From assembly GCF_012516395.1 (NCBI RefSeq), contig NZ_CP051206.1, forward strand, positions 4,243,334 through 4,283,333: DNA of 40,000 nucleotides. Direction: 5' to 3'. Positions 1 through 30,337 of the stretch are shown one piece after another. Source of the stretch: Dolichospermum flos-aquae CCAP 1403/13F. Its GTDB lineage: Bacteria > Cyanobacteriota > Cyanobacteriia > Cyanobacteriales > Nostocaceae. Made by a program: the position numbers and the translations under genes. The first letter of the stretch is position 1. Every line of letters begins with the position of its first letter. The notes beneath the pieces are model-generated. The model made no database searches. It saw nothing but the letters and a program-made list of their open reading frames with translations, and was not told the origin of the DNA.

Positions 1-3000
1 ATGAGTAATACTGAATCAAATCAAGAGCAAACAACCTCATTACAAAGGTTACTCCACGCCCTAAAACAAGCTCGTACCCAAATCGAAAATACAGAACGAC
101 AAAAAACTGAACCCATAGCGATTATTGGTATGGGGTTTCGATTTCCCGGTGGAGTGAAAGACCAAGAGACATTTTGGCAACTATTAGATCAGGGAGTAGA
201 TGCTATTACTGAAGTTCCTAGCGATCGCTGGGATGTTGAGCGTTATTATGATCTTAATCCAGATGCACCAGGAAAAATATATACCCGTTATGGCGGGTTT
301 TTAGAACAAGTAGACCAATTTGATCCGCAATTTTTCGGTATTGCTCCCCGCGAAGCCATGGATATGGACCCCCAACACCGATTGTTATTAGAAATGACCT
401 GGGAAGCCATAGAAAATGCCGGCATTGCCCCAGAGCGACTGAAAGGCACGCAAACAGGCCTATTTGTCGGCATGAGTTCCGATGATTATTCCCAACTCAG
501 TTTGAATTTTGAGGATTTAAACAGCGTCGAAGCCTACAGAGGATTAGGGAGCGCTCGCAGTATAGCCGTTGGTCGTTTGGCGCATATTCTGGATTTACAG
601 GGCTTAACGATGCAACTAGATACATCTTGCTCATCTTCCCTATTAGCCATTCATTTAGCCTGTCAAAGTCTGCGTTCCGGTGAATCTCATCTGGCTATAG
701 CTGGTGGTGTGAATTTAATTCTTTCCCCCATGAACACCATCTTGGGATGCAAACTTCGCGCTTTATCAACCGATGGCCGTTGTAAGACCTTTGACGCTGC
801 GGCGGATGGTTATGTCAGAGGAGAAGGGGGTGGTATGGTGTTACTAAAGCGGCTATCTGAGGCAGAAGCTGATGGTGACAACATCCTAGCATTAATTCGG
901 GGTTCTGCCGCCAATCATGATGGTAAAAGTAATGGACTAACAGCCCCTAACGGCTTGGCTCAAGAGGCTGTAATTAAACAAGCTTTAACCAATGCACGTG
1001 TAAAACCAGAACAGATTCAATATGTAGAAGCACATGGTACAGGAACACCTCTAGGAGATCCAATTGAAGTATTGGCATTAGGGAAAGTTTTCTGTCAAGG
1101 TCGCTCAGAGCAAGAACCGTTAATCATTGGTTCAGTTAAAACTAACTTTGGTCACTTGGAAGCCGCAGCGGGAATAGCCAGTTTAATTAAAGTAGTCCTG
1201 TGTTTACAACATCAGCAAATACCGCCCCATTTACACTGCCAAAATCCTAATCCTTATATACCTTGGGATCAACTAGCGATCGCTATTCCCACCGAATTAA
1301 CTCCATTATCTCCCCAAGATAGCCATTTAGCCGGAATTAGCTGCTTTGGCATGAGTGGCACAAATGTACATATTATTGTCGAATCACCCGCAACTCCAGT
1401 CAAAAGTGAGGATGATCCACAACTGCATCTTTTGACCCTTTCCGGCAAAACTGAACAGGGTTTGCGAGATTTAGCCCAAAGTTATGAAGAATTTTTAAAT
1501 CAGCATCCTGACATCTCCATTGCGGATATATGTTTTACTGCAAATACAGGGCGATCGCACTTTGATCATAGACTAGGGATTATTGCCCAATCACATCATC
1601 ACCTGCACCGACAACTAGAGGATTTCCGACAACAGACACCAATTACCTCGGTAATCAGTGGGCAACTGACCAGCAAAAAACGCCCAAAAATTGCCTTTTT
1701 ATTCACAGGACAAGGTTCGCAATATGTGAACATGGGCAAAGAACTATACCAAACCCAACCAGTTTTTCGCCAATCCCTAGACCAATGCGCCCAAATTCTC
1801 AGTTCTGAATTAGAGTATCCACTTTTGGAAATTCTCTATTCACAAACAAGGGAAAATCCTCTAATTAATCAAACAGCATGCACCCAACCAGCCCTATTTG
1901 CCCTAGAATATGCCCTCACCCAACTTTGGCAATCCTGGGGAATTAAACCAGATATAGTCATGGGTCACAGTGTCGGCGAATACGTCGCCGCTTGTGTAGC
2001 CGGGATTTTCAGCCTAGAAGACGGACTCAAACTGATTACCCACCGGGGACGGTTGATGCAGCAGTTACCAGAAGACGGAGAGATGGTAGCAGTCATGGCA
2101 TCAGGGGGACAAGTACAACCAATTATTACCCCCTACAAAGACCAAATAGCGATCGCTGCCTACAACACAGCCAACAGCATAGTCATTTCCGGGGCGAAAA
2201 CAGCCATCAGAGACGTTTGTAACCAATTAGAATCCCAGGGAATCAAAACCAAAAATCTCCAGGTATCTCACGCCTTCCACTCCCCACTCATGCAGCCAAT
2301 GCTGGCAGAGTTTGCCACTGCTTCCGCCCAAATTACCTACAAGCAACCGCAAATTCCCTTAATTTCTAACCTCACAGGAAAACCAGCCACCGCAGACATT
2401 ACCACTGGGCAATACTGGGTAAATCATATCTGCGACCCCGTGAAATTTGCGGATAGTGTCACTACATTAAATCAACTGGGTTATAAAATCTACTTAGAAA
2501 TTGGACCCCAACCCATCTTGTTAGGGATGGTAAATCAACAGGAATCTCCAGTAGTGCCTTTAACCTTACCTAGCCTATATCCAAAACTTCCTGACTACCA
2601 ACAATTACTGCAAAGTCTCGCCACCCTGTATACTCATGGTGTGTCAGTGAATTGGCCAGAATTTCACCAAACTGACACCAACCGTCGCAAAGTTGCCCTA
2701 CCTACCTATCCATTTCGAAGAGAACGCTACTGGATCAATAGACATCTCCAAGGCAAAAATCAGGTCACTCATTCCCCATTCTCTCAAGATCAACAACGAC
2801 ACCCCATTTTAGGATATCGTTTGAGTAATGTAGCAACCTTGCCCCATACTTACATTTGGGAAACACCAATAGATGAATTTTATCTCTCTTGGTTAAAAGA
2901 TCATCAAGTCTGGGATACCGTGATCATGCCCCATACTGGGTATCTGCAAATAGCTTTTGAAGCCACTCAAGCAGCCTTTGGTCAGCCAGGGAATGAAATT

Positions 3001-3231
3001 ACTAATTTAAAACTTTACTATCCTCTGTTTTTGTCAACAGCAGAAGAGCAAAAGATTCAAGTGATTCTCTCCCCCCAATCGGAAAGTAAGATGTTACTGC
3101 AAGTGTATAGCTGTCGCCTCAGTAAATCCTCTTCCACATCAGAGTGGACTTTATACGCAGATGCACAAGTTTCGTCTTCACCAACCTATCCAGAACAAAC
3201 AGATAATTCACGGAGGTTAATAGAAGTATGA
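1..3231 (+). CDS. Type I polyketide synthase subunit: KS-AT-(N-terminal half of DH)
   Basis: 1076-aa ORF beginning at window base 1. KS motifs DTSCSSS (Cys codon 628-630), EAHGTGT, NFGHLEAAAG. AT motifs GHSVGE and HAFH. The C-terminus has HPILG and LKDHQVWDTVIMP (HxxxGxxxxP-type DH His motif). A ~35-aa leader before the KS looks like an inter-subunit docking element. The stop overlaps the next start (ATGA). Confidence 0.9.
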   Translation: MSNTESNQEQTTSLQRLLHALKQARTQIENTERQKTEPIAIIGMGFRFPGGVKDQETFWQLLDQGVDAITEVPSDRWDVERYYDLNPDAPGKIYTRYGGFLEQVDQFDPQFFGIAPREAMDMDPQHRLLLEMTWEAIENAGIAPERLKGTQTGLFVGMSSDDYSQLSLNFEDLNSVEAYRGLGSARSIAVGRLAHILDLQGLTMQLDTSCSSSLLAIHLACQSLRSGESHLAIAGGVNLILSPMNTILGCKLRALSTDGRCKTFDAAADGYVRGEGGGMVLLKRLSEAEADGDNILALIRGSAANHDGKSNGLTAPNGLAQEAVIKQALTNARVKPEQIQYVEAHGTGTPLGDPIEVLALGKVFCQGRSEQEPLIIGSVKTNFGHLEAAAGIASLIKVVLCLQHQQIPPHLHCQNPNPYIPWDQLAIAIPTELTPLSPQDSHLAGISCFGMSGTNVHIIVESPATPVKSEDDPQLHLLTLSGKTEQGLRDLAQSYEEFLNQHPDISIADICFTANTGRSHFDHRLGIIAQSHHHLHRQLEDFRQQTPITSVISGQLTSKKRPKIAFLFTGQGSQYVNMGKELYQTQPVFRQSLDQCAQILSSELEYPLLEILYSQTRENPLINQTACTQPALFALEYALTQLWQSWGIKPDIVMGHSVGEYVAACVAGIFSLEDGLKLITHRGRLMQQLPEDGEMVAVMASGGQVQPIITPYKDQIAIAAYNTANSIVISGAKTAIRDVCNQLESQGIKTKNLQVSHAFHSPLMQPMLAEFATASAQITYKQPQIPLISNLTGKPATADITTGQYWVNHICDPVKFADSVTTLNQLGYKIYLEIGPQPILLGMVNQQESPVVPLTLPSLYPKLPDYQQLLQSLATLYTHGVSVNWPEFHQTDTNRRKVALPTYPFRRERYWINRHLQGKNQVTHSPFSQDQQRHPILGYRLSNVATLPHTYIWETPIDEFYLSWLKDHQVWDTVIMPHTGYLQIAFEATQAAFGQPGNEITNLKLYYPLFLSTAEEQKIQVILSPQSESKMLLQVYSCRLSKSSSTSEWTLYADAQVSSSPTYPEQTDNSRRLIEV
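109..1383 (+). other. KS domain (module 1)
   Basis: EPIAIIGMGFRFPGG ... DTSCSSS ... EAHGTGTPLGDPIE ... KTNFGHLEAAAG ... GTNVHIIVE. The Cys-His-His triad is present. Confidence 0.9.
1687..2580 (+). other. AT domain, malonyl-type (module 1)
   Basis: FLFTGQGSQ, GHSVGE, VSHAFHS. The HAFH motif is associated with malonyl-CoA selection in established AT motif rules. Confidence 0.8.
2800..3180 (+). other. DH domain, N-terminal hot-dog half only
   Basis: HPILGYRL entry motif and DHQVWDTVIMPHTGYLQIAFEA (catalytic His and Pro retained, Gly replaced by Asp). The ORF ends before any YGP or DxxxQ/H motif. Confidence 0.7.
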
Positions 3232-4247
3232 AATTTGGTTTAATGTTCTTTGCCAGCAGTGAAGATGCCCTGGTAGGTGATAAATACAGCCTAGTGATTG
3301 ACAGCGCCCGATTTGCCGATCAGCACGGCTTTAGTAGTATTTGGACACCAGAGCGGCACTTTACTCAATTTGGTAGTTTATACCCCAATCCAGCGGTTTT
3401 GAATGCAGCTTTAGCTAGGGAGACCCAACGGATTCGTTTACAAGCAGGTAGCGTGGTTATGCCTCTGCACCATCCCCTAGAAGTAGCAGAATCATGGTCT
3501 TTAGTAGATAACCTGTCCAATGGACGAGTGGGTATATCTTTAGCGCCGGGTTGGAATCCTGGTGATTTTGCCACCTCTCCAGACAAGTATAGCGATCGCC
3601 ACCAAGCCGTTTTTACCAACTTAGAGATTTTACGCAAACTCTGGCAAGGAGAATCTCTAAAAGTTACCGACGGCAAAGGACAACCCACAGAAGTCCGCAT
3701 TTATCCCACCCCCATACAGCCCCAATTGCCCATTTGGATCACAGCAGCAGGTAATCCCCAAACATACATCAAAGCCGGAGAAGTGGGGGCAAATCTGCTA
3801 ACGCACCTTCTAGATCAAGAGGTGGAAACATTAGGAGAAAAAATCGCCCTCTACCGTCAAGCTAGAGCTAGAAACGGTCATGATCCAGAAGCAGGAATAG
3901 TCTCACTCATGCTGCATACCTTTGTTGGTCAAGATTTTGAGCTAGTCCGTGAACAAGCAAGACTACCTTACTGTAATTACCTCAAAGCCAACATTGGACT
4001 TCTCAAAGGACTAGCCCAAAGTCGAGGTCACGATGTTGATATTAGTACATTGCCTGAGCGAGACTTGAATGATTTTGTTAACTTTTTGTATGATCGCTTT
4101 GCGACATCAAGAGGCTTAATTGGCACTCCTGAGACTTGTCAGAACTTACTAGCACAGTTGGATAGAATTGGTGTTAATGAAGTAGCGTGCTTACTGGATT
4201 TTGGTTTAAGTAAAGAACTGATTCTCCAACAGTTACCTGATCTCAAT
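3228..4247 (+). other. LLM-1: luciferase-like (FMN-type) monooxygenase domain
   Basis: Paralogous to 10378-11430 and 25711-26760. Shared blocks: M.F.L..F, (W)(T/L)PERHF, PNP.V, AGSVV.P.HH/Q, RVAE.W, DN(L/I)S.GRVGIS.A.GW.P.DF, LHTFVG, GTP..C, IGV(N/D)E(V/I)(A/G)CL(L/I)DFG. Confidence 0.85.
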
Positions 4248-6851
4248 CAATTACGAGAAGAGGATCAGGGAATGGGGAACAGGGAACTCTTAACAGGGAA
4301 CAGGAAGCAGGAGTTAGTAACTTCGCACCAGTCCGTTATTCCTGTAGAGTCCCTAGAAACTATTCGTTTGCGTTGTCAAGATCAGAGAAACGCCCGCGAA
4401 TTTTATCAACTACTGCAAGGACATGGGTTACAGTTACAAGCAACCTATCAGGGTATTCAAAATCTGTGGTTAGGTGAACGAGAAGCCTTAGCCCAAATTA
4501 AATTATCAGGTGAGGTAGCCTTTGGTAATGGGTTTCAAGTGCGAGCGGCGGTATTAGATGCCTGTCACCAAGTCTTAGGGGCAACATTACTGGGTAAAAT
4601 CCTATCGGGAGGAATGGAGACTGATACTCAGACTACCCCAGAGAAAATGTCCCTCTATTTACCCACAGGACTCAAGAGTTTTCAAATTTATGAATCTCTA
4701 GGAACGGAAGTTTGGAGTCATGCTGTCCTGCGTCACCATCAAAGCAGTAATTCTAGTGTCGCTGCTCAAGAGATGATAGAAGGAGATATTTATATTTTTA
4801 ATAGTACAGGTAATCTGGTGGTGAAAGTATCTGGTTTGCAGATGCAAAGTACCACGGTTGCAGGTCAATCAACCAGTCAAAAACAGCAAGATCCGAATTT
4901 GTTGTATGAGTTACAATGGCAACCTCAGCCTTGGGTAGAAGTTGCGTCAACCACAACCGAGCCAGGTGTGTGGTTAATATTTGCAGACCAATCTGGAGTT
5001 AGTCAGAATGTAATTGAGTTATTAGAAGCCCAAGGTGATACCTGTTGGATTATTAATCACAGTGAAAACTCCCAGAATCAACCCCAACAGCAAATTGTTG
5101 TGACTCCTGGGGATCAAACCCAGATGCAACAGTTAATGAGTCAGGCTTTAGCGCCAGGACATCCTCTCTGTCGCGGTATACTGCATCTGTGGAGTTTAGA
5201 TGTTACTCCCAGTCAAGCCACCACGTTGCCATCTCTGCAACAGGATCAAACCCTAACTGTCACCAGTTTTTTACATCTAGTGCAAGCAGTTAGCCAAACT
5301 GCTCAGGCTCAAATTCCCCCCATCTGGATTGTGACTCAGGACGTGCAGCAGGTGGGATCAGAAACAACTCCCCGTTCTATTGCTCAAGCTCCGATTTGGG
5401 GTTTAGGACGAGTTGTAGCCACCGAATTGCCCAAGGTGTGGGGAGGATTGGTAGATTTAGATGGAGATAATACACCTGAAGTATCTGCGAAACAATTACT
5501 GCACATATTACAAACAAGCGATCGCGAAGATCAGATTGTTCTCCGTCAAGGACATCCCCATATTCTCCGCCTAGTCAAGAGTCAAAAAACACCAGTTTCA
5601 CCCCAATCTATCCAACTGCAACCAGAAGCTACTTATGCAATTACCGGAGGATTTGGGCATTTTGGACTAGAAAGTGCGAAATGGTTGGCAAAAAAAGGCG
5701 CGAAATCCCTAGCTTTAATCGGCAGACGCACCCCATCCAGTCCAGTCCAGTCCGCCATTAAGGAATTAGAAAAAACTGGAGTTCAAGTCCTGGTTGTTGA
5801 AGCAGATGTGTCCGATGTAACGGGCATGACCGAGGCGATCGCTACCATCCAATCTACCTGTCCACCCTTAAAGGGAATTTTCCACATAGCAGGTTTGAGT
5901 CAACAAAACCTATTGACAAATATCACAACTAATGATATGGATGCCATGTTGCGTCCTAAAGTTTTTGGCACCTGGAACTTACATCAACTCACATTGGATC
6001 TCCATCTCGATTTCTTCTTCAGCACCTCTTCCATGTCTCCCGTATTTGGATCTCAAGGACTAGGACATTATGCTGCGGCTAATTACTTCCTAGATATTTT
6101 TGCCCACTATCGTCACAGTTTAGGACTACCAGCATTAACCGTCAATGTTGGGGCTTTAGCAGGTGGTGGTATGGCTTTAGCTTCACCGGCAGGGGAGAAA
6201 TATACTACCCAAATAGGTTTAAATTTAACTCACCCTAGTGATTTACTAGATGTGGCTGGAGGCTTTTTCTCACAAGCAGATGTAGCGAATATGGTCATTG
6301 CCGATATGGATTGGTCACTATTCAAACCCCTTTATGAAGGGACTACTGGTAAACTGCTTTTAGGACAAATAGAGGCACAAAATAGCGCAACTCAGGCAAA
6401 AATAGGACAACGAGATATCCTTTGGCAACAGTTGGAGACATTACCGGAAAGTGAGCGTTACCAACAAGTAGTGACTCATTTACAACAAGAAGTAGCCAAC
6501 ATCCTCGGTTACTCTGCCAATCAGCCATTGTTTAACCCAGAGGTAGGGTTCTTTGATTTAGGCATGGATTCTTTATTAGCCGTCGCCTTTAAGAATAAGC
6601 TGGAAAATAGCTTAGGTTCTTCTTTGCCAACCGTGTTGATTTTTGAACACCCTAATGTTATTAGTTTAACTGAGTACATCATCACAGAGGTACTTCAGTG
6701 GGAATCTGCAATAGATGATGATAATGTCCAACCAGTGTCACAACCATCAGGCTTGGAAACGGAACTTTCCCAAACAATCCAGGAATTATCCGAACAGACA
6801 TTAGAGGATTTGATTAATCAAAAATTAGCCAGAGCTTTGGAGGATGACTAA
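3228..6851 (+). CDS. PKS subunit: LLM monooxygenase domain-(C-terminal half of DH)-KR-ACP
   Basis: 1207-aa ORF. ATG overlaps the previous stop, with GGAGG at 3211-3215. N-terminus MKFGLMFFAS...FADQHGFSSIWTPERHF...RLQAGSVVMPLHHPLEVAESWSLVDNLSNGRVGISLAPGW is luciferase-like. Then DH-like FYQLLQGHG.../LDACHQVL, KR YAITGGFGHFG...GHYAAAN, and ACP LGMDSLL (Ser codon 6570-6572). Confidence 0.9.
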   Translation: MKFGLMFFASSEDALVGDKYSLVIDSARFADQHGFSSIWTPERHFTQFGSLYPNPAVLNAALARETQRIRLQAGSVVMPLHHPLEVAESWSLVDNLSNGRVGISLAPGWNPGDFATSPDKYSDRHQAVFTNLEILRKLWQGESLKVTDGKGQPTEVRIYPTPIQPQLPIWITAAGNPQTYIKAGEVGANLLTHLLDQEVETLGEKIALYRQARARNGHDPEAGIVSLMLHTFVGQDFELVREQARLPYCNYLKANIGLLKGLAQSRGHDVDISTLPERDLNDFVNFLYDRFATSRGLIGTPETCQNLLAQLDRIGVNEVACLLDFGLSKELILQQLPDLNQLREEDQGMGNRELLTGNRKQELVTSHQSVIPVESLETIRLRCQDQRNAREFYQLLQGHGLQLQATYQGIQNLWLGEREALAQIKLSGEVAFGNGFQVRAAVLDACHQVLGATLLGKILSGGMETDTQTTPEKMSLYLPTGLKSFQIYESLGTEVWSHAVLRHHQSSNSSVAAQEMIEGDIYIFNSTGNLVVKVSGLQMQSTTVAGQSTSQKQQDPNLLYELQWQPQPWVEVASTTTEPGVWLIFADQSGVSQNVIELLEAQGDTCWIINHSENSQNQPQQQIVVTPGDQTQMQQLMSQALAPGHPLCRGILHLWSLDVTPSQATTLPSLQQDQTLTVTSFLHLVQAVSQTAQAQIPPIWIVTQDVQQVGSETTPRSIAQAPIWGLGRVVATELPKVWGGLVDLDGDNTPEVSAKQLLHILQTSDREDQIVLRQGHPHILRLVKSQKTPVSPQSIQLQPEATYAITGGFGHFGLESAKWLAKKGAKSLALIGRRTPSSPVQSAIKELEKTGVQVLVVEADVSDVTGMTEAIATIQSTCPPLKGIFHIAGLSQQNLLTNITTNDMDAMLRPKVFGTWNLHQLTLDLHLDFFFSTSSMSPVFGSQGLGHYAAANYFLDIFAHYRHSLGLPALTVNVGALAGGGMALASPAGEKYTTQIGLNLTHPSDLLDVAGGFFSQADVANMVIADMDWSLFKPLYEGTTGKLLLGQIEAQNSATQAKIGQRDILWQQLETLPESERYQQVVTHLQQEVANILGYSANQPLFNPEVGFFDLGMDSLLAVAFKNKLENSLGSSLPTVLIFEHPNVISLTEYIITEVLQWESAIDDDNVQPVSQPSGLETELSQTIQELSEQTLEDLINQKLARALEDD
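4254..4313 (+). repeat. In-frame GGGAACA-type short repeat block forming the LLM-to-DH linker
   Basis: ggaatggggaacagggaactcttaacagggaacaggaagcagga, translated as EDQGMGNRELLTGNRKQE. It resembles the intergenic heptamer repeats elsewhere in the window. Confidence 0.6.
4335..4862 (+). other. DH domain, C-terminal hot-dog half (degenerate YGP motif)
   Basis: EFYQLLQGHGLQLQATYQGIQNLW (at the position of the Y..YGP.F motif), AAVLDACHQVL (DxxxQ/H motif), LYLPTGLKSFQIY, GDIYIFNSTGNLVVKVSGLQMQ. Confidence 0.6.
4959..6347 (+). other. KR domain (module 1), catalytic Tyr present
   Basis: GVWLIFADQSG structural subdomain, WGLGRV, YAITGGFGHFG Rossmann motif, RPKVFGTWNL, SSMSPVFGSQGLGHYAAAN (Tyr codon 6069-6071). 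No LDD motif (HIAGLSQQNLL). Confidence 0.8.
6450..6692 (+). other. ACP domain (module 1)
   Basis: VVTHLQQEVANILG...FFDLGMDSLLAVAFKNKLE...LIFEHPNVISLTEYI. Followed by an acidic helical C-terminal tail (docking-like). Confidence 0.85.
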
Positions 6852-19530: not shown

Positions 19531-19531
19531 G

Positions 19532-19548
19532 ATTGGTAATTGGTAATC
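19532..19548. repeat. TTGGTAA heptamer (STRR-like) in the NRPS-racemase spacer
   Basis: attggtaattggtaatc. It contains the TTG used as the ORF-track start of the racemase ORF. Confidence 0.5.
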
Positions 19549-19569
19549 AACTTAGTAAATAAGGATGAA

Positions 19570-20328
19570 ATGGATAAGATGGATAAAATTTTAGGTATTT
19601 TGGGAGGAATGGGACCTTTAGCATCAGCAGAATTTGTGAAAACTATTTATGAGTACAATATTGCCGGAGACAAAGAACAAACCGCACCCAGAATTATGCT
19701 CAATTCTAATCCTTCCATTCCTGATAGAACAAGTTTTCTGCTCAAAGGGAATTATGATTTATTGTTGAGGAATTTGATTGAATCAGCCCATCAATTGAGC
19801 GATTTACAAGTTTCTAAGATTGTTATTTGTTGTTTTACATCTCATTATTTATTGCCATACTTACCCAGCAACATCAGGGAAAAAATCATTTCTTTAGTTG
19901 ATGTTTGTTTACAAGAAGTGTGGAGTTGTAAAGGTCGTCATTTGCTTTTATGTACAAATGGAACTTATCAACTAAAAATATTCCAAAGTAGTGAATTATG
20001 GCAGATGACGGCGGATAATATTATTATTCCCGATGAACAAGACCAAAATGCCATCCATAATATGATTTATCAAATCAAGGTTAATAAACAAAGCTTTGAT
20101 TCAGCTACTATTTTCTTGAAAACTCTTATGAATAAATATCATGTAAATTCCCTTATATCCGGTTGCACAGAAATCCACTTACTCAACCGCTATATTCACT
20201 CTCAAAACCATCAAAATCAAGAATATTTTGATCATAGTATTTTCTTAGATCCTCTGATGATTATTGCCACCAGATTAGAGAAATTCCTGGGTGAAAATTC
20301 ATTCAATCTCACTACAATTTCTGCCTGA
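19570..20328 (+). CDS. Aspartate/glutamate racemase family protein (McyF-like stand-alone racemase)
   Basis: ILGILGGMGPLASAEF N-terminal motif and two Cys motifs (VICCFTSHY and ISGCTEIHL) typical of PLP-independent two-thiol racemases. The ORF-track start TTG 19540 lies in a heptamer repeat. ATG 19570 is preceded by AAGGA (19561-19565); ATG 19579 is an alternative. Confidence 0.8.
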   Translation: MDKMDKILGILGGMGPLASAEFVKTIYEYNIAGDKEQTAPRIMLNSNPSIPDRTSFLLKGNYDLLLRNLIESAHQLSDLQVSKIVICCFTSHYLLPYLPSNIREKIISLVDVCLQEVWSCKGRHLLLCTNGTYQLKIFQSSELWQMTADNIIIPDEQDQNAIHNMIYQIKVNKQSFDSATIFLKTLMNKYHVNSLISGCTEIHLLNRYIHSQNHQNQEYFDHSIFLDPLMIIATRLEKFLGENSFNLTTISA

Positions 20329-20391
20329 GTTAATAAATATTCTGACTGCTAACTAGTACAACCCTGAAAAACCTAAATTGTATTTTTAGAA

Positions 20392-23300: not shown

Positions 23301-26300
23301 AAACAATTTTGTTGCGCCCCGTACACCGACAGAACAGCAAATTGCTGATATATTTGCGGCTGTTTTAAAAATAGAACAGGTAGGTATTTACAATAACTTC
23401 TTTGAACTCGGCGGACATTCGCTTTTAGCCACTCAAATTATCTCTCGATTTCGAGAAACTTTTCAAATCGAACTACCTTTAGAAACAATATTTAAATCAC
23501 CAAATGTTGCTGATTTGGATGTAATTATTCAGGAATGGTTAAATAATAATTCCGGGACAGATTCACCTCTAAATCAACCTTTACCGCCTGTAGTTGCACT
23601 ACCAAGGGATAGTTCCTTACCTCTAAGTTGGGGACAAGAACGTTTGTGGTTCTTAGATCAGTTAGAAGGGAGTAGAGTAGCGTATAACATTCCGATGGCA
23701 ATTCAGTTGCAAGGAGATTTAAATATTCAGGCTTTAGAACGGGCATTTCAAGAGATTGTCCACCGTCATGAAATATTGCGAACTCACTTTGCCACTGTTG
23801 ATGGCCAGCCCATACAAGTAATTGCCACAGCATCAAATTTTGGTTTAATTCAAGACAGCCTAAAAATAAGTTCTGGTGATAAATTAGCTATTGAAATTAA
23901 GCAAAGACTCATCCAAGAGGCGCAAACACCCTTTGATTTAACTCAGTCTCCTTTAATTCGGGCGTTACTACTGCACACAGGTGAAAATAACTATATTCTC
24001 CTTGTCACCATACATCACATTGTTAGCGATGGCTGGTCTATCAGAGTCATGGTAAACGAGTTATCCAGGCTCTATACTGCCTTTGTCCAGGGGTTGCCCT
24101 CTCCTTTACCACCTTTAACCATCCAGTACGCAGATTTTGTCCAGTGGCAACGTCAATGGTTACAGGGGGACATTCTGGAACGGCAGTTAACCTACTGGAA
24201 AACATACCTTTTAGGCGCTCCTCCAGTGCTGGAATTGCCTACTGATTATCCCCGTGCTGGGGTGCAAACCTTTCGCGGCTCACAGCAATCTTTTCAACTG
24301 TCTGGTGAATTGATTCATCAACTTAAACAACTTACCCAAACTACAGACACGACATTATTTATGGTGTTGTGTAGCACTTTCCTGATTTTACTCAATCGTT
24401 ATAGTGGTCAGGATGACATGATAGTGGGAACTGTCATGGCTAATCGTAATCGCACTGAGATTGAACCTTTAATTGGTTTATTTGTGAATACGTTGGTGCT
24501 GCGAACTCAGTTTGGAGAAGATGCCACTTTTATAGATATTTTGAGGCAGGTACAGCAAGGAACACTTGGAGGATATGCCCATCAAGATGTACCATTTGAA
24601 AAAATTGTGGAAGTATTGCAACCAGAACGAAATCTCAGCCATTCACCTCTATTCCAGGTGATGTTTTCGTTGCAAAATGCAGCCAGCACTTCACTAGATT
24701 TACCAGATGTTGTTTCTACTCCCCTGAAGTCGGAAATCCTCACAGCAAAATTTGATGTCACTGTTTCAATGGTAGAAACTGAGTCTGGATTGTCTGGCTT
24801 TTGGGAGTACAACACAGATTTATTTAAACCAGAAACCATCGCTGGCATGATCGGCCATTTCCAGATATTGTTGGCGGAGATTGTCACCAATGCTCAAGAG
24901 TGTGTCAGTAAATTGCCCCTATTGACACCACAGGAAACACACCAGCTATTAGTTAGCTGGAATCATACAGAAGTTGACTATAACCCAGATCATTGTTTGC
25001 ATCAACAGTTTGAACAACAGGTAGAGCGAACACCAGAAGCGATCGCCCTAATTTGCCAAAATCAGGAGTTAACTTACCGAGAACTCAATCACCGAGCAAA
25101 TCAATTAGCACATTACTTACAGCGTCAAGGCATCAGACCAGAAATGTTAGTGGGTATTTGTGTAGAGCGATCGCTAGAAATGATGGTGGGGTTATTAGGA
25201 ATTCTCAAAGCCGGCGCAGCATACATTCCCCTTGACCCACAGTATCCCCCAGAACGATTAGCTTTTATCCTCTCAGATAGCCAATTACCACTGTTATTAA
25301 CCCAGGAACGTCTCCAGGGGAATTTACCTAGTCATGGGGCTAAGGTCATCTGTTTAGATACTGATTGGGCTGACATTGCCCAGGAAAATCACACTAATCT
25401 GGGGACATCGGTAAAAGGTGAAAACCTAGCCTATCTCATCTACACTTCTGGTTCAACTGGACAACCCAAAGGGGTGATGATTGAACATCGTCAAGTTGCT
25501 AATTTCTTTGTGGGCATGGATCAGCGACTAGGCACACAAAGCAGTTCTCACTCGACAAAAACCTGGCTGGCTGTGACAACTATTTCCTTTGATATCTCGA
25601 TTCTGGAATTATTCTGGACATTGGCACGGGGGTTTAAGGTAGTTATTCAACCAGAGCCAGAGAAAACCATTGCGGCTACAGTTCCAGCGACACGGATACC
25701 AGAAAAAACAATGGAGTTTTCCCTGTTCTATTTTGCCAATGACAATGATACAGGCAATGATCAAAGAGAAAACCGTTACAAGTTGTTGATTGAAGGGGCT
25801 AAATTTGCTGATGGACATGGATTTACGGCAGTTTGGACACCAGAACGTCATTTCCATGAGTTTGGGGGGATTTATCCTAATCCGGCGGTGGCGAGTGCCG
25901 CGATCGCCGCAGTAACTAAACAGGTAAAAATTCGGGCTGGTAGTGTGGTTCTACCACTACATCAAGAAATTCGCGTCGCCGAAGAATGGGCTTTTGTAGA
26001 TAATTTATCTCATGGTCGAGTGGGAATTTCTTTTGCCAGTGGTTGGCAACCCAATGACTTTGTACTATCTCCCGACAATTATCAACGTCGTAAATCACTC
26101 CTCGTGGAACAGATCGAAACTGTCCGCAAACTTTGGCGAGGGGAATCTATCACCCTCAAAAATGGCAATGGTATTCCCACAGAAGTTAGAACTTTCCCTA
26201 AACCAATTCAAGCCGAATTACCAAGTTGGTTAACTGCTGCTGGTAATCCCGAAACCTTCCGATTAGCAGGAGAGTTGGGTTTAAATGTGCTGACACATCT

Positions 26301-28719
26301 TTTAGGACAAGGTGTGGAAGAACTGGCAGAAAAAATTAAAATTTATCGTCAGGCCTGGCAACAACAAGGACATCCGGGTAATGGTCATATTACTTTGATG
26401 CTACATACCTTTGTTGGCGATGACGAAGACACAGTGCGGGAACAGGTACGTATTCCCCTGTATAATTATTTAGAGCAATCTATGGAACTAATTCAAAAGA
26501 TGCTCAAAGGAACTCAATTTGAGGCGCAGCTTGATGAATTTGCCCCAGAGGATCGAAAGACTTTGCTATCCCATGCCTTTGAGCGTTATTTTGCCACCAG
26601 TGGACTATTAGGAACTCCTGCCAAATGTTTGACGATGATTGACAATCTTAAAGCCATTGGTGTTGATGAAGTGGGATGTTTAATTGATTTTGGCGTAGAT
26701 GTTAATTCGGCCTTATCTAGTTTAGAAAAGCTCAATCAAGTCAAAAAACTGAGTAATAGTGGTGTTAATCCTGAAGATTATGGTATTTTGAACCAAATTC
26801 AGCGCTATCAAGTATCCCATCTTCAATGTACTCCTTCTTTAGCCAGAATGATGACGTTGATGCCCAATGGTATTGAGAGCTTGAGTTGTTTACAATATTT
26901 AATGTTGGGTGGAGAAGCGTTACCACCAACTTTAGTTAAACAGTTGGGAACATCTATCAATGCCCATATTTACAATATGTATGGACCAACTGAAGCGACT
27001 ATTTGGTCATCTACGGCAATTGTGAATCACAATGATCCGAAAACCAGTATTACCATTGGTAAACCCATAGCCAATACTCAGATTTATATTTTGGATCAAT
27101 GGTTAAATCCTCTGCCTGTGGGAGTTCCAGGAGAGTTATATATTGGAGGCAGGGGTTTAGCTAGGGGATACTTAAACCGTCCTGAGTTGACAGCAAAGCA
27201 ATTTATACAGAATCCTTTTGAGAGCGATAGGCAAGCTCGTCTTTATAAAACAGGTGATTTAGCCCGATATTTAGCTGATGGAAATATAGAATTTTTGGGG
27301 CGTGTTGACTATCAAGTTAAGCTGCGAGGATTCCGCATTGAATTAGGGGAAATTGAAGCGGTACTGAGTCAACATCCCCAGGTTCAGCAAGCGGTGGTCG
27401 TCCTAGACGGAACAGAGGAAAATCAGCGCCTTGTGGGTTACATTGTTCCCCATTCCCCATTGTCTTCACCCACTCCCCATGAGTTATCTCAATTCCTCCT
27501 CAAGACCCTACCTGATTACATGATGCCGAGTATTTTTGTCTCACTTGAGCAAATGCCCTTAACCCCCAATGGCAAAATTAACCGTCGGGCGTTACCAGCA
27601 CCATCGGCTCAAAGTCCGTCATTAAAGTATATTCCTCCTCGTACTCCTGTAGAAAGACAATTAACTCAAATTTGGTCTGAGGTTTTACATCTGGACTGGA
27701 TTGGTATTCGTGATAATTTCTTTGAACTAGGTGGACGCTCCCTACTGGCAGTACAATTGATGTCACGGGTGCAAAAGGTATTTGGTCAACAATTACCCCT
27801 GGCTACCCTCTTCCAAGCCCCAACCATAGAGAATTTAGCCCGGCAATTAGTTCGCTCAGATAGTACCCAGCAATCATCTTGCTTAATACCCATTCAACCC
27901 CAAGGCTCAAAATTGCCCCTATTTTTTATTCCAGGGTCAGGGGGTAGTGTGGTACAATTCTATGAACTCTCTCGTTGTTTGGGGTTAGAGCAGCCTTTCT
28001 ATGGCTTACAGGCTCAAGAATTAGATGATCAATCTCAACCTTTAAGTCGGGTTGAGGATATGGCCATTAGGTATCTTGAAGCTATTCGATCTGTCCAACC
28101 CCAAGGTCCTTATATTTTGGGTGGTCATTCCTTGGGGGGTAAGGTGGCTTTTGAAATCGCCCGACAACTGTTAGCGCAAGGACAAGAAATTAAATTCTTG
28201 GCCATTGTTGATGCTACTGCTCCTGTGCCTATTCAGCAAGTTTTCACCCCTGGGGATTGGCATGATGCTGAGTGGTTAAATGCGATCGCCTCTGGAGCAG
28301 CAGAAGCCTTGGGAATCACCTTGGATATCTCCTCTGAAATGTTAAATGGTTTATCTCCAAAAGAGCAGTTTAGCCACGTGGAAAATCAGTTTGTCCAAAA
28401 TGGTATTTTAGCACCTGAAGACAGTGAAACCCAGTTAAAAAAATTGATTGAACTGACGAAAATTCAACATACAAGTGCTGTAAATTATCAATGTTCAGAA
28501 CGGTTGGCTTTGCCAATTACACTCTTTAAGTCTGCTGAACGAGTAAATAATTCTATCATCTTTGCAGGTAATTCACTGCTAAATGAACCTACCCTGGGTT
28601 GGGATCAATTTTCCACCGAACCTGTGGTCTGTCATCTGATTCCGGGAAGTCATTATTCCATCATGGCTAATCCTCATGTCAAGGAATTAGCAGCACATTT
28701 ACAAGGCTACTTAAATTAA
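20392..28719 (+). CDS. NRPS: C-A-PCP-C-A(LLM inserted)-PCP-TE
   Basis: 2775-aa ORF. Motifs are listed in the domain features. A terminal thioesterase marks the end of the assembly line. Confidence 0.9.
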   Translation: MTDNTLLSTASETFVFPLSFSQERLWFLNQLEGANATYNMSAAIRLSGKINIQVLEKAINEILQRHEVLRTSFQILDSQTVQVISTDVDFTLHCINLEDLPATEREINVQKWMKKEAITPFDLSQSPLIRATLLQTDIQEYVLLVTMHHIISDAWSVGIVIRELSIIYRAFIESQPHALPELDIQYADFSQWQREWLQGDRLDKQLTYWKNYLAGVSPFLKLPTDHPRPPIQTFSGQNQRFAIGADLSIALKQLAQENGCTLFMVLFAAYATLLHRYSNQEDVVVGTSVANRSQPELETLIGFFVNTLVLRAKFEQNLTFLELLQQVKQGALESYTHQDLPFEQIVEALQPERNLSHSPIFQVWFVLQNTPTETLQLPDVTLTPLLSETQVAKFDLALSMSETKSGLTGMWQYNTDLFDADTIARMVGNFQVLLEAIATQPQEKINLLPLLTTQEQQLLNNWNHTAAPYPQDVCIHQIFEKQVMLTPDAVAVVYGEQQLTYQQLNDRANQLAHHLQSIGVGAEVLVGLCVHRSLEMIVGLLAILKAGGAYVPLDPNYPEERLAYILKDAAVSVLLIPESLEENLPPSYALVVYLDSDWQEIATQSCENPVPTVQPHNLAYVIYTSGSTGQPKGVLVTHQGIGNLALAQQNLFKVESDSRVLQFAAFGFDASVSEIFMALVSGAQLVLAPSQQIMPGVDLQRTIAHHGITHITLPPSALAILPPEQIPTLKQVIVAGEACPEPLARIWSQGRHFFNAYGPSEATVCATVAEVCFPAADNTNAVVPIGRAIANTQIYILDNALQLVPVGVPGEIYIGGVGIARGYSHQPQLTAAKFIENPFQAGRLYKTGDLARYLPDGNIEFLGRLDRQVKIRGFRIELSEIEAHLSQHPQIQETTVITREDPSGNQRLIAYLVSKDNTLTTSELRQFLKNRLPDYMVPNIFVMLDVMPLTPNGKIDHRSLPSPEQDLIEENNFVAPRTPTEQQIADIFAAVLKIEQVGIYNNFFELGGHSLLATQIISRFRETFQIELPLETIFKSPNVADLDVIIQEWLNNNSGTDSPLNQPLPPVVALPRDSSLPLSWGQERLWFLDQLEGSRVAYNIPMAIQLQGDLNIQALERAFQEIVHRHEILRTHFATVDGQPIQVIATASNFGLIQDSLKISSGDKLAIEIKQRLIQEAQTPFDLTQSPLIRALLLHTGENNYILLVTIHHIVSDGWSIRVMVNELSRLYTAFVQGLPSPLPPLTIQYADFVQWQRQWLQGDILERQLTYWKTYLLGAPPVLELPTDYPRAGVQTFRGSQQSFQLSGELIHQLKQLTQTTDTTLFMVLCSTFLILLNRYSGQDDMIVGTVMANRNRTEIEPLIGLFVNTLVLRTQFGEDATFIDILRQVQQGTLGGYAHQDVPFEKIVEVLQPERNLSHSPLFQVMFSLQNAASTSLDLPDVVSTPLKSEILTAKFDVTVSMVETESGLSGFWEYNTDLFKPETIAGMIGHFQILLAEIVTNAQECVSKLPLLTPQETHQLLVSWNHTEVDYNPDHCLHQQFEQQVERTPEAIALICQNQELTYRELNHRANQLAHYLQRQGIRPEMLVGICVERSLEMMVGLLGILKAGAAYIPLDPQYPPERLAFILSDSQLPLLLTQERLQGNLPSHGAKVICLDTDWADIAQENHTNLGTSVKGENLAYLIYTSGSTGQPKGVMIEHRQVANFFVGMDQRLGTQSSSHSTKTWLAVTTISFDISILELFWTLARGFKVVIQPEPEKTIAATVPATRIPEKTMEFSLFYFANDNDTGNDQRENRYKLLIEGAKFADGHGFTAVWTPERHFHEFGGIYPNPAVASAAIAAVTKQVKIRAGSVVLPLHQEIRVAEEWAFVDNLSHGRVGISFASGWQPNDFVLSPDNYQRRKSLLVEQIETVRKLWRGESITLKNGNGIPTEVRTFPKPIQAELPSWLTAAGNPETFRLAGELGLNVLTHLLGQGVEELAEKIKIYRQAWQQQGHPGNGHITLMLHTFVGDDEDTVREQVRIPLYNYLEQSMELIQKMLKGTQFEAQLDEFAPEDRKTLLSHAFERYFATSGLLGTPAKCLTMIDNLKAIGVDEVGCLIDFGVDVNSALSSLEKLNQVKKLSNSGVNPEDYGILNQIQRYQVSHLQCTPSLARMMTLMPNGIESLSCLQYLMLGGEALPPTLVKQLGTSINAHIYNMYGPTEATIWSSTAIVNHNDPKTSITIGKPIANTQIYILDQWLNPLPVGVPGELYIGGRGLARGYLNRPELTAKQFIQNPFESDRQARLYKTGDLARYLADGNIEFLGRVDYQVKLRGFRIELGEIEAVLSQHPQVQQAVVVLDGTEENQRLVGYIVPHSPLSSPTPHELSQFLLKTLPDYMMPSIFVSLEQMPLTPNGKINRRALPAPSAQSPSLKYIPPRTPVERQLTQIWSEVLHLDWIGIRDNFFELGGRSLLAVQLMSRVQKVFGQQLPLATLFQAPTIENLARQLVRSDSTQQSSCLIPIQPQGSKLPLFFIPGSGGSVVQFYELSRCLGLEQPFYGLQAQELDDQSQPLSRVEDMAIRYLEAIRSVQPQGPYILGGHSLGGKVAFEIARQLLAQGQEIKFLAIVDATAPVPIQQVFTPGDWHDAEWLNAIASGAAEALGITLDISSEMLNGLSPKEQFSHVENQFVQNGILAPEDSETQLKKLIELTKIQHTSAVNYQCSERLALPITLFKSAERVNNSIIFAGNSLLNEPTLGWDQFSTEPVVCHLIPGSHYSIMANPHVKELAAHLQGYLN
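20437..21770 (+). other. C domain 3 (HHxxxDA variant)
   Basis: FPLSFSQERLWFLNQLE, RHEVLRTSF, MHHIISDAWS (20830-20859; Gly of HHxxxDG is Ala, codon 20851-20853). Confidence 0.85.
21815..23280 (+). other. A domain 3, hand-extracted code DASTIAAVCK (Tyr-type)
   Basis: LTYQQLN, VIYTSGSTGQPKGV, FGFDASVSE, ITLPPS, VIVAGEA, NAYGPSEATVCA, YKTGDLARY, KIRGFRIELSE, NGKIDH. From memory, one canonical Tyr code is DASTVAAVCK (one conservative difference). Confidence 0.6.
23310..23540 (+). other. PCP domain 3
   Basis: FFELGGHSLLATQIISRF, Ser codon 23419-23421. Confidence 0.9.
23617..24950 (+). other. C domain 4
   Basis: LPLSWGQERLWFLDQLE, RHEILRTHF, IHHIVSDGWS, IQYADFVQWQR. Confidence 0.85.
24997..27600 (+). 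other. A domain 4, interrupted by LLM-3; hand-extracted code DILQMGMIWK (Gly-type)
   Basis: N-part: LTYRELN, LIYTSGSTGQPKGV, ISFDISILE (A4). C-part after the insert: HLQCTPS, LMLGGEA, NMYGPTEATIWS (A5), GELYIGG, YKTGDLARY, KLRGFRIELGE, NGKINR. From memory, the canonical Gly code is DILQLGLIWK. Confidence 0.75.
25711..26760 (+). other. LLM-3: luciferase-like monooxygenase domain inserted between A4 and A5 cores
   Basis: MEFSLFYFANDND...FADGHGFTAVWTPERHFHEFGGIYPNPAV...RAGSVVLPLHQEIRVAEEWAFVDNLSHGRVGISFASGWQPNDF...LHTFVG...IGVDEVGCLIDFG. Confidence 0.85.
27630..27850 (+). other. PCP domain 4 (GGRSL variant)
   Basis: FFELGGRSLLAVQLMSRV, Ser codon 27739-27741. Confidence 0.85.
27913..28716 (+). 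other. Thioesterase (TE) domain
   Basis: LFFIPGSGGS, GGHSLGG (Ser codon 28129-28131), VDA, IPGSHYSIM. Confidence 0.85.
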
Positions 28720-28741
28720 ATTTTTCTTAAGGAGAAAATTC

Positions 28742-30337
28742 ATGTCAGATGAAAAGTTTTACCTCAAACAAAATGTGGTTTTAGAACCGTTAGTTAATCA
28801 GTGGCACGCTTGGTCTTATTTGATAGCTCCAGCTACGGCAGCTATGTATATTCTCAATTCCCATTTAAAGATTATGCAGTCTTTTGTGTCTGCCCCAAAA
28901 GTGCATATTTCCGCCCTCAAATCACCAAAGATGATGGCGGGACCTTTTGTTAATCATGATGAAAGTGCTGCTAGTGATATTAAGGATTTGATTGAATACT
29001 TGAGGACAAAACAAGCACATATGTTAGAGCTTGCTGAAGCTATTAAAATCCTGAATGAATATCTAGAGACAGAAGCTAGTGGTTTTTCTTTAGAAGAAAT
29101 ATATGCAAAAATTCCTCAGTCTCTTCAGGGATTTGTTGAACTTAATTATGATTTAAATAATCATCCAGCGATGCGTTTAATGGAGGGGCTTTTGTACCAC
29201 AGTGTTTATTGTAATCAGGTTTCCCAAAGTATTGCAATGTATGTTGTTGAACAGGATCAACGACCTTTTATTTTTAGCACGCCTAGATTAAAGCAAGCTG
29301 ATAATTTACATCTGCATATCCCATTCAAACATCAGATTTTAGATCAACTATCGAAAATGAAATATGTTCCTGGTGATTTGCAAGAAATTAAAGAGAAATT
29401 AGATATTGATGATCAAGATGAAACACTATTTGTAAGTTTCTTTACACAAGAGCCTCCCCATCAGCAACCCCGTCAATTTGATCAAGATGGTGTCAGAGTC
29501 CGTTATTTTGGCCATGCTTGTCTGTTGATAGAATCAAAAGATGTGAATATCCTCTGCGATCCACTTATCAGTTATAATTACCCCAATGCCAGCGATCGCT
29601 ATACCTACGCTGATTTACCTCCCATTATTGACTACATTGTGATTACTCACCACCATCATGATCACTGTGTAATTGAAACATTATTACAGCTAAGACATCG
29701 GGTGAAAACTGTGATTGTTCCTAAAAATAATGGCGGAAGTCTGGCTGATCCTGCCATGAAACTTATTTTACAGAGTATTGGTTTTAAGGATGTGAGAGAA
29801 ATTGATGAAATGGAAGAGATAGATATTACAGGGGGTAGCATTACTGGGTTGCCATTTTTGGGTGAACATGGAGATTTAAATATTAGAAGTAAAATCGCTT
29901 ATTTAATCACTTTGTTAGGTCGCTCAGTCATGGTTTCAGCGGACTCTAGAATTCGTGATCCTCATGTTTGTAAAAATATATGCAATTCAGTTAATAAGAT
30001 TGATGCTTTATTTTTAGGACTACAATCTGATGGAGCACCTTTGAGTTGGGCTTATGGTTCATTATTATGTAAACCTTTAAGTCGCAAAATGGATAATGAT
30101 AGACAAGTGGGAGGAGCTAACTTTGAAATTGCCAGTAGTATGGTTGAACAGTTGAAACCTAACTCTATGTATGTCTATGCAATGGGCTATGAACCTTGGT
30201 TAAGTTATATGATGGTTCCTGATTTTGACGGACCTATGGCAGAGTCGAAGAAGTTAATTGACGAATGTAATAGCAAGGGAATTTTTTCAGAACAATTGTT
30301 TGGTTACAAGGAAATTTTGTGTCGGCTCAATAAGTAG
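28742..30337 (+). CDS. CmlA-like beta-hydroxylase (N-terminal accessory domain + metallo-beta-lactamase-fold, probable di-iron oxygenase)
   Basis: 531-aa ORF, 22 nt after the NRPS stop, with AAGGAGA RBS (28729-28735). C-terminal half has MBL motif ITHHHHDH (HxHxDH, aa 303-308) followed by LGEHGD (E375) and SADS (D401). It has a ~250-aa N-terminal domain without MBL motifs. Length and two-domain layout match my recollection of CmlA, the carrier-protein-dependent di-iron beta-hydroxylase of chloramphenicol biosynthesis. Confidence 0.6.
   Translation: MSDEKFYLKQNVVLEPLVNQWHAWSYLIAPATAAMYILNSHLKIMQSFVSAPKVHISALKSPKMMAGPFVNHDESAASDIKDLIEYLRTKQAHMLELAEAIKILNEYLETEASGFSLEEIYAKIPQSLQGFVELNYDLNNHPAMRLMEGLLYHSVYCNQVSQSIAMYVVEQDQRPFIFSTPRLKQADNLHLHIPFKHQILDQLSKMKYVPGDLQEIKEKLDIDDQDETLFVSFFTQEPPHQQPRQFDQDGVRVRYFGHACLLIESKDVNILCDPLISYNYPNASDRYTYADLPPIIDYIVITHHHHDHCVIETLLQLRHRVKTVIVPKNNGGSLADPAMKLILQSIGFKDVREIDEMEEIDITGGSITGLPFLGEHGDLNIRSKIAYLITLLGRSVMVSADSRIRDPHVCKNICNSVNKIDALFLGLQSDGAPLSWAYGSLLCKPLSRKMDNDRQVGGANFEIASSMVEQLKPNSMYVYAMGYEPWLSYMMVPDFDGPMAESKKLIDECNSKGIFSEQLFGYKEILCRLNK

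Follow-up and report, generated by a model that had tools for sequence, protein, structure and literature searches.

Three luciferase-like monooxygenase domains in three contexts of a probably intact FAAL-primed hybrid PKS-NRPS cluster of Dolichospermum flos-aquae, predicted to make a polyhydroxylated lipopeptide amide

Luciferase-like monooxygenases (LLMs) are found in several natural-product pathways. MupA, after which the NCBIfam family TIGR04020 is named, alpha-hydroxylates an acyl carrier protein (ACP) thioester in vitro (PMC10952193). In puwainaphycin biosynthesis, PuwE carries an aminotransferase and a monooxygenase between the polyketide synthase (PKS) module and the first nonribosomal peptide synthetase (NRPS) module; the monooxygenase (Ox) was assigned the 2-hydroxyl group and is held, together with the aminotransferase, to give the 3-amino-2-hydroxy acyl unit (PMC4219810), and a similar domain has been annotated in micD of microginin biosynthesis (PMC9594780). 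In the release of myxothiazol, Gly is condensed onto the chain and an embedded monooxygenase cleaves its C-alpha-N bond, giving the amide and a glyoxylyl thioester of the peptidyl carrier protein (PCP) (bioRxiv 10.1101/2024.10.28.620694). Occidiofungin contains 3-amino-5,6,7-trihydroxystearic acid as its acyl part (PMC9792986) and includes beta-hydroxy-Tyr, and ocfI of its cluster is labelled only 'flavin-dependent monooxygenase' in the published gene table (PMC9494966). Here we describe a stretch of 40,000 nucleotides (the window) of Dolichospermum flos-aquae CCAP 1403/13F (contig NZ_CP051206.1, positions 4,243,334 to 4,283,333), of which positions 1-30337 are, as we judge with some confidence, the larger part of an intact hybrid PKS-NRPS cluster that is primed by a fatty acyl-AMP ligase (FAAL), contains three LLM domains and has an undescribed product.

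All three LLM domains (LLM1, LLM2 and LLM3) match TIGR04020, the model of the MupA/Atu3671-type LLMs dependent on flavin mononucleotide (FMN), over model positions 1-338/341 with 488.5, 517.8 and 524.1 bits respectively (E-values of 1e-147 to 1e-157; cut-off 244.45 bits), and also match Pfam Bac_luciferase (E-values of 1e-45 to 1e-49), which confirms the three segments that an earlier note, made from the sequence alone, had taken for such domains. LLM2 and LLM3 are 46% and 49% identical to LLM1, and more than 130 columns are invariant across the three segments, including the blocks PERHF (His44), PNP, AGSVV.P.H, GRVGIS, LHTFVG and IGV.E..CL.DFG; the shared blocks named in that note are all present, with the correction that LLM1 reads EVAE and not RVAE. 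Pfam profiles bear out that the domains occupy three different contexts, namely between the halves of a split dehydratase (DH) domain, between an ACP and a ketoreductase (KR) domain, and inside an adenylation (A) domain. They are not recent paralogues, since each resembles its counterparts of like context elsewhere more closely than it does the two LLMs beside it (46-49%): the median identity is 58-65% between LLM1 and proteins with an N-terminal LLM-DH-KR arrangement, 57-68% between LLM2 and the class in which the LLM precedes a condensation (C) domain, and about 60% between LLM3 and LLMs embedded in A domains. The line therefore combines three pre-existing, context-specific lineages. Nor does precedent exist for the third context only, as the note had it: the first is that of the widespread OcfJ/OcfI module of occidiofungin, and LLM2 matches PuwE OX (PDB 6KET) at 560 bits, compared to 414 bits for LLM3 and 397 bits for LLM1.

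Ten open reading frames (ORFs) of at least 150 amino acids (aa) lie on the + strand of the window, six of which (genes 1 to 6, Table 1) are packed tightly within 1-30337. Throughout these genes the carrier serines, the Cys-His-His triad of the ketosynthase (KS) domains, the HHxxxDG motif of the C domains and the GxSxG motif of the thioesterase (TE) are intact. The cluster genes were found again on ENA, JGI and Logan assembly contigs, on which an opposite-strand JmjC/cupin-8 gene, an MFS transporter gene and a FAAL-ACP gene of 764 aa lie upstream of the window sequence; gene 1 matches a Logan contig at 100%, where its start overlaps the stop of the FAAL-ACP gene, and an NCBI protein from Dolichospermum flos-aquae has the same sequence as gene 2 (100% identity). 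The whole cluster thus comprises a FAAL-ACP, two PKS modules, four NRPS modules, a McyF-like racemase, a CmlA-like hydroxylase, a JmjC hydroxylase and an MFS gene. Protein searches, on which the distribution given here is based (a genome-collection scan with the racemase returned no orthologues from Scytonema, Cylindrospermum or Dolichospermum), revealed orthologues in Scytonema hofmannii, Cylindrospermum sp. FACHB-282 and Calothrix that are about 77-82% identical. The first two organisms keep all nine genes (FAAL-ACP, genes 1-6, JmjC and MFS), with an identity of about 78-80%, together with the three LLMs and the His residue of the second KR domain discussed below. The JmjC and MFS genes follow gene 6 there instead of preceding the FAAL gene, and because they accompany the cluster in both genera, at its other end, we consider them to belong to it. 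In one population variant (ENA ERZ1283870 contig, 236-6777) the called FAAL measures 497 aa compared to 764 aa and the MFS gene is absent; a DDE transposase, a phosphopantetheinyl transferase and an alpha/beta hydrolase are the upstream genes of this variant. Full-text literature searches found no publication on the cluster or on a matching compound, in line with the earlier note, which did not recognise the gene order as that of any characterised cyanobacterial cluster. The lusichelin cluster, which came up through an A2-like domain in the same strain, was rejected as a match, given that all lus A domains are Cys-type.

From domain content and order, the product is predicted to be polyhydroxy-acyl-Asp-(D-iso-Asp)-(beta-OH)Tyr-NH2, a small anionic polyhydroxy-lipopeptide amide. 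The FAAL would load a fatty acid onto its own ACP, after which module 1 (KS-AT-DH_N / LLM1-DH_C-KR-ACP) would add malonate, KR1 would reduce C3 and LLM1 would hydroxylate the alpha carbon of the ACP thioester, yielding a vicinal diol; in position, module 1 would match C6/C7 of the occidiofungin 5,6,7-triol. Module 2 (KS-AT-ACP-LLM2-KR2) would add a second malonate, in agreement with the two malonate extensions expected in the earlier note and with the malonyl motif HAFH of both acyltransferase (AT) domains; LLM2 would set the C2 hydroxyl group, and KR2, which has His in place of Tyr, may or may not reduce C3. The 2,(3),4,5-oxygenated acyl chain would then be extended with L-Asp, an acidic D-residue and Tyr, the D-residue coming from the McyF-like racemase and being activated by A2, a domain of the DARH type. 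The CmlA-like enzyme encoded by gene 6 probably beta-hydroxylates the PCP-bound Tyr and the JmjC enzyme would hydroxylate another position. Finally, module 4 would add Gly, of which LLM3 would hydroxylate the alpha carbon; collapse of the hemiaminal would leave a C-terminal primary amide and glyoxylyl-PCP, the latter to be cleared by the TE.

A number of points weigh against this scheme. The domain identities are observed, whereas the chemistry of each step is deduced from homologous systems and from colinearity. KR2 has no catalytic Tyr, which makes the oxidation state of C3 uncertain. In the first module, the DH Asp motif is strongly kept in the family and gene 1 retains the DH His, so that the DH may yet have a catalytic role. 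The substrate assignment of A2 rests on code resemblance and co-occurrence with a racemase. All four C domains group with LCL-type references and there is no epimerisation (E) domain, the LCL typing being uninformative for a residue linked through its side chain. Lastly, CmlA-family enzymes also hydroxylate non-aromatic residues, and gene 6 may accordingly have a target other than Tyr.

The junction between PKS and NRPS is a variant of the PuwE-type one. LLM2 is 63-69% identical to LLMs located directly before C domains in synthetases of Microcystis and other cyanobacteria, many of which have an aminotransferase ahead, and in these relatives the HH motif of the C domain follows about 140-185 residues after the LLM, whereas here the gap between LLM2 and C1 consists of about 520 residues of KR. 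Pfam gave no match to Aminotran_3 in gene 3, and neither Pfam nor motif inspection revealed a carrier domain between KR2 and C1, leaving ACP2 as the sole carrier of PKS module 2. Of about 480 relatives that were fetched, a similarity-ranked and not exhaustive sample, none outside this cluster family shows the order ACP-LLM-KR-C. Within KR2 the catalytic Tyr is replaced by His (GQSNHAAAN; SSIASLLGSPGQSNHAAAN), as it is in the Scytonema and Cylindrospermum orthologues. Two features look new, namely this module order and a KR Tyr to His exchange conserved in three genera.

What KR2 does is a matter on which we see room for a second reading, to which we give appreciable weight though we hold it to be less likely than not: KR2 may not be a reductase at all, so that a 2-hydroxy-3-oxo-acyl (or further oxidised) chain reaches C1 and the KR fold serves only as a scaffold replacing the aminotransferase of PuwE-type modules. 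This would account for a His kept in three genera where 62 of the 63 KR motifs of fetched relatives keep Tyr, and for the placing of KR2 after the ACP, in the slot of the aminotransferase and Ox domains of PuwE-type lines. Conversely, KR2 has retained the Rossmann motif, Lys, Ser and LDD, the domain is clearly under purifying selection, and the His could serve as general acid. To our knowledge there is no experimental precedent for a His-variant KR, be it as a reductase or otherwise. Possible, but to be put forward only tentatively, is that a contiguous 2,3,4,5-tetra-oxygenated, sugar-acid-like head on the fatty chain arises jointly from modules 1 and 2 through on-line LLM alpha-hydroxylations only, that module 2 is of an undescribed type in which a His-KR fold replaces the PuwE-type aminotransferase, and that the product represents a new class of polyol lipopeptide amides.

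In module 1, the border between genes 1 and 2, which overlap by ATGA, falls exactly at the boundary of DH_N and LLM1. With gene 2 as the query, 3691 proteins were obtained at an E-value of at most 1e-30. Among the best 120, almost all share its content of LLM, PS-DH, KR and PP-binding domains and measure 1100-1350 aa; their sources are cyanobacteria, Burkholderia, myxobacteria, Ktedonobacteria and Acidobacteria. The arrangement LLM-DH_C-KR(-ACP) was present in 178 of 208 fetched relatives, and the LLM starts at most 30 residues from the N-terminus in 181 of them. Two (P0121 and P0123) carry DH_N-LLM-DH_C-KR-ACP on a single chain and a third (P0122) has the same DH_N-LLM N-terminus; the existence of such single-chain relatives identifies the LLM as truly inserted into the DH, with one hotdog half on each side. 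When gene 1 aa 925-1076 was joined to gene 2 aa 1-565 and modelled with AlphaFold on an alignment of 70 rows, the mean predicted local distance difference test (pLDDT) value was 82, compared to 35 for the single sequence, and the model has a TIM barrel flanked on either side by secondary structure of the hotdog type; its best PDB fold match is 6KET, at a target-normalised TM-score of 0.93, and only LLM matches were returned.

The split layout, in which the upstream protein ends in DH_N and the next one is LLM-DH_C-KR-ACP, is shared with two other loci (L007 and L009). In the first of these, from Burkholderia (member P0113), a FAAL-ACP-KS-AT-DH_N protein precedes an LLM-DH_C-KR-ACP protein with the start MKFGL and an ATGA overlap, and the gene sizes of 720, 951, 987, 4428 and 3324 bp equal the published sizes of ocfN, ocfM, ocfK, ocfJ and ocfI. 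We infer by colinearity that OcfJ/OcfI, as the first extension module, would set the C7 hydroxyl group (beta, by the KR) and the C6 hydroxyl group (alpha, by the oxygenase) of occidiofungin.

As regards the DH itself, the LDAC.Q motif of DH_C retains Asp in 161 and Gln in 146 of 182 family members, GYxYGPxF is not kept, and the catalytic His is lacking in P0122 and P0123. This mixed state of the DH motifs across the family favours a scaffold and docking role, and the two DH halves, residing on separate polypeptides, are probably mainly a scaffold and docking interface. Rather unlikely in our view, yet deserving mention, is an active DH in module 1 with an LLM1 that does not hydroxylate an enolate: either the KR and then the DH would lead to a 2-enoyl thioester, whose epoxidation by the flavin peroxide is followed by opening of the epoxide to the diol, or the DH would dehydrate the 2,3-diol to a 2-oxoacyl chain. 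The catalytic His kept in gene 1 (HxxxDxxxxP) and in the canonical HxxxGxxxxP of OcfJ, as well as the conserved Asp of DH_C, would suit such a DH, and an LLM insertion into the DH fold that is ancient and widespread would fit a functional coupling of both. Against it count the relatives lacking the His, the loss of GYxYGPxF, the direct hydroxylation of a saturated thioester by MupA and the retention of both hydroxyl groups in occidiofungin.

In the NRPS part, specificity codes were read against GrsA. The Asp, DARH-code and Tyr-type residues of the earlier note stand, with the amendment that there are four A domains, the LLM3 host being Gly-specific; the Tyr-type code of A3 is identical in a microginin-like protein of Microcystis. 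The stand-alone racemase foreseen in the note is McyF-like: the best PDB match of gene 4 is McyF (1e-44), followed by an Asp racemase (7e-21), and its catalytic Cys residues C98 and C209 align with those of McyF. A genome scan with an alignment of gene 4 and McyF recovered Microcystis mcy loci, four Nostoc loci and one Polyangium locus, and the A domain beside the racemase reads DPRHSGVVG in Microcystis McyE, DARHLSLMT in the four Nostoc loci and DARTVAFMT in Polyangium. This pairing of a racemase with a D-x-R-H/T A domain in other loci supports, and does not prove, a D-acidic residue. In microcystin, the D-acidic residue is joined via its side-chain carboxyl group, and by analogy the second residue here is probably D-Asp joined in the same way. 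A search with A2 against all protein representatives was dominated in its ranking by giant multi-A NRPSs and became informative after local re-analysis; a literature search for the code DARHVGIFVK as that of McyB module 2 gave no match. The four Nostoc loci (L012, L014, L015 and L021, about 1200-20600) form a different, small cluster whose A domains, like those here, are of the Asp (DLTKVGHVG), DARH and Tyr (DASTIAAVC) types, in which the McyF-like racemase occurs with a stand-alone DARH-type A-PCP and the Tyr A domain with a TE; it further holds two WelO5-like halogenases and an asparagine synthase, and a LanM-type gene adjoins it.

Gene 6 is a full-length CmlA-family non-haem diiron beta-hydroxylase by its sequence, with Pfam CmlA_N at 3.5e-90, CmlA in the PDB at 5e-107 over residues 5-519, PDB 8a90 at 4e-127 and the metal motif HHHHDH (HxHxDH) at aa 303-308, which agrees with the carrier-dependent beta-hydroxylation suggested in the earlier note. 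It is 43% identical to a 1617-bp gene at the ocfG position of a Burkholderia ocf cluster and, occidiofungin holding beta-hydroxy-Tyr, Tyr is its likeliest target. A match of gene 6 to a Nostoc flagelliforme plasmid belongs to a different cluster and was rejected.

In the terminal module, removal of LLM3, which is flanked by FDISILE before and NMYGPTE after the insert, gives A4 the code DILQMGMIWK, corresponding to Gly. All 13 A-embedded LLM relatives examined also have Gly-type codes, with the LLM at the same insertion point, 82-103 residues after motif A3. With a Gly-specific domain hosting LLM3, the nitrogen of the Tyr amide would come from a sacrificial Gly, as in myxothiazol; the predicted ending of a Tyr-type residue as primary amide therefore holds, and its route is amended to one through a fourth, sacrificial Gly module.

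The idea, raised in the earlier note, that the product is a metallophore (an alpha-hydroxy-acid or beta-hydroxy-Asp chelator) and not a surfactant-like or inhibitory lipopeptide gained no ground, and we regard it as improbable. The predicted alpha-hydroxy-carbonyl groups, two acidic residues and two extra hydroxylases would suit a chelator, and a Fur-family gene (35043-35486, -) lies 5 kb downstream of the cluster; that gene adjoins purS (35525-35890) and purQ (36091-36762) and has no counterpart beside the orthologous clusters, and no match to an E. coli-type Fur box was found upstream of the operon. In the window and in the visible flanks of the clusters in three genera there is no TonB-dependent receptor, ABC siderophore uptake gene or TauD/SyrP-type Asp hydroxylase, which leaves a siderophore without positive support. 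Cyanochelins A, B and C were rejected as known matches, their clusters having different modules, an Asp beta-hydroxylase of the TauD type and, in the case of cyanochelin C, a transporter cassette next to the cluster.

That the cluster is a decaying, non-producing remnant, as a transposase fragment abutting it and the one metagenomic variant with a truncated FAAL and lost MFS gene could suggest, is highly improbable given six long uninterrupted ORFs, about 30 kb altogether, whose stops and starts overlap or lie close to each other, checked catalytic and carrier motifs that are all intact except for the KR2 Tyr to His and DH_N Gly to Asp exchanges, the same proteins unchanged on many metagenome contigs and intact orthologues in other genera.

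The genes of the window 3' of position 30337 (a transposase fragment, a PP2C phosphatase, NfeD/SPFH, Fur, purS, purQ and a 1014-aa ORF) lie outside the cluster and do not recur beside the Scytonema and Cylindrospermum clusters. The DDE transposase fragment (30704-31060, -, 118 aa) follows directly after gene 6 and covers the C-terminal part of the domain only. An NfeD-like gene and a SPFH/band-7 gene (33472-35014, +) form a usual pair unrelated to the cluster, and the 1014-aa ORF (36898-39942, +), situated in a stretch of low GC content (30-35%), had no match in Pfam, NCBIfam, PADLOC or the PDB sequences. Rfam and tRNA scans of the window gave no matches.

Table 1. Genes and domains of the cluster in the window (nt, nucleotide position in the window; aa, residue of the encoded protein)
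Feature	Position	Strand	Content or motif	Source
Gene 1	1-3231	+	KS-AT-DH_N	Pfam
Gene 1 KS	nt 109-1239	+	DTSCSS/HGTGT/NFGH	
Gene 1 AT	nt 1696-2622	+	HAFH = malonyl	
Gene 1 DH N-terminal hotdog half	nt 2800-3111 (aa 934-1037)	+	PKS_DH_N	
Gene 2	3228-6851	+	LLM-DH_C-KR-ACP	Pfam
LLM1	3228-4247	+	gene 2 aa 1-340, N-terminus, between DH halves	
Gene 2 DH C-terminal hotdog half	nt 4350-4868 (PS-DH, aa 375-547)	+	LDACHQ = DxxxQ	
KR1	nt 5628-6161	+	Tyr/Ser/Lys kept, no LDD motif	
ACP1	nt 6480-6680	+	LGMDSL	
Gene 3	6844-19530	+	KS-AT-ACP-LLM-KR-C-A-PCP-C-A-PCP	Pfam
Gene 3 KS	nt 6961-8091	+	DTACSS	
Gene 3 AT	nt 8566-9411	+	HAFH = malonyl	
ACP2	nt 9730-9927 (PP-binding aa 963-1028)	+	MGADSI	
ACP2-LLM2 linker	9928-10377	+	about 150 aa, Gln/Ser/Leu-rich (IERIMSQQLQAMSDLMSQQLAVL)	no Pfam match
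LLM2	10378-11430	+	PuwE-type OX domain after ACP2	
KR2	11446-12735	+	structural subdomain and catalytic subdomain (nt 12187-12735; aa 1782-1964); LDD present	Pfam KR (catalytic subdomain)
C1	12997-14319	+		Pfam
A1	about 14386-15915	+	code DLTKIGHVGK, Asp	
PCP1	15997-16176	+		Pfam
C2	16264-17595	+		Pfam
A2	17659-19104	+	code DARHFSLMVK	
PCP2	19189-19380	+		Pfam
Gene 4	19540-20328	+	stand-alone Asp/Glu-type racemase, independent of pyridoxal phosphate	Pfam, TIGR00035
Gene 5	20392-28719	+	C-A-PCP-C-A(LLM)-PCP-TE	Pfam
C3	20437-21768	+		Pfam
A3	21826-23253	+	code DASTIAAVCK, Tyr-type	
PCP3	23335-23517	+		Pfam
C4	23617-24951	+		Pfam
A4 N-part	25009-25665	+	AMP-binding profile positions 1-242	
LLM3	25711-26760	+	inside A4 domain, between core motifs A4 and A5	
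A4 C-part	26788-27576	+	AMP-binding profile 249-384 and AMP-binding_C	
PCP4	27658-27846	+	GGRSL	
TE	27916-28704	+	GHSLG	
Gene 6	28742-30337	+	CmlA_N and metallo-beta-lactamase fold	Pfam

These results point to a lipopeptide amide not described so far, polyhydroxylated and probably strongly anionic, in bloom-forming Dolichospermum and other Nostocales. Because the cluster is found in these organisms and again on many contigs of freshwater metagenomes, its product may be abundant in the environment. The line offers a natural test bed in which three LLM lineages would perform three jobs, i.e. diol formation, 2-hydroxylation at the PKS/NRPS junction and amide release. Moreover, it connects OcfI, a 'monooxygenase' with little annotation, with a split-DH/LLM module that is very widespread, and exposes a conserved KR variant (Tyr to His), the ACP-LLM-KR(His)-C arrangement being the one module-level variant of the line. 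Since each LLM context has already been found in other pathways, the cluster is a new combination of known module types and not a new kind of machine.

Compared with the known systems, the three LLMs belong to the same NCBIfam family as MupA, a demonstrated alpha-hydroxylase of ACP thioesters; MupA is free-standing and recruited to a KS0-ACP bimodule of a trans-AT PKS, whereas the LLMs are here fused into cis-AT PKS and NRPS modules. LLM2 takes the place of the PuwE/microginin-type domain after the last PKS ACP and before the first NRPS C domain; those (aminotransferase)-LLM-C lines lead to 3-amino-2-hydroxy acids, while the present line has no aminotransferase and has the His-variant KR2 between LLM2 and C1. 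Module 4 resembles the terminal C-A(LLM)-PCP-TE of MtaG and MelG (myxothiazol and melithiazol) with its Gly-specific A domain, and in MtaG the LLM presumably has the same insertion point. The residue preceding the amidation module is an amino acid (Tyr-type) here and a polyketide acid in MtaG/MelG, and the nearest A-embedded LLM relatives beyond the orthologues are about 60% identical and have no TE. With the McyF/McyB/McyE system of microcystin, the cluster shares a stand-alone two-Cys racemase (gene 4 being 48% identical over the aligned part) and an adjoining D-x-R-H A domain, A2 and the A domain of McyE being only about 34% identical. The closest parallel to genes 1 and 2 is OcfJ and OcfI of the occidiofungin/burkholdine cluster, with the same DH_N / LLM-DH_C-KR-ACP split, MKFGL start and ATGA overlap, an alpha,beta-diol at the position matching module 1, and a CmlA-like hydroxylase and Tyr module as well. 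The two nevertheless differ in that the counterpart of gene 2 is only 39% identical over gene 2, the FAAL-ACP is a separate gene here and fused into the OcfJ protein there, the DH_N motif of OcfJ has Gly where gene 1 has Asp, and the later occidiofungin modules, comprising KR-only and aminotransferase modules, lead to a cyclic octapeptide.

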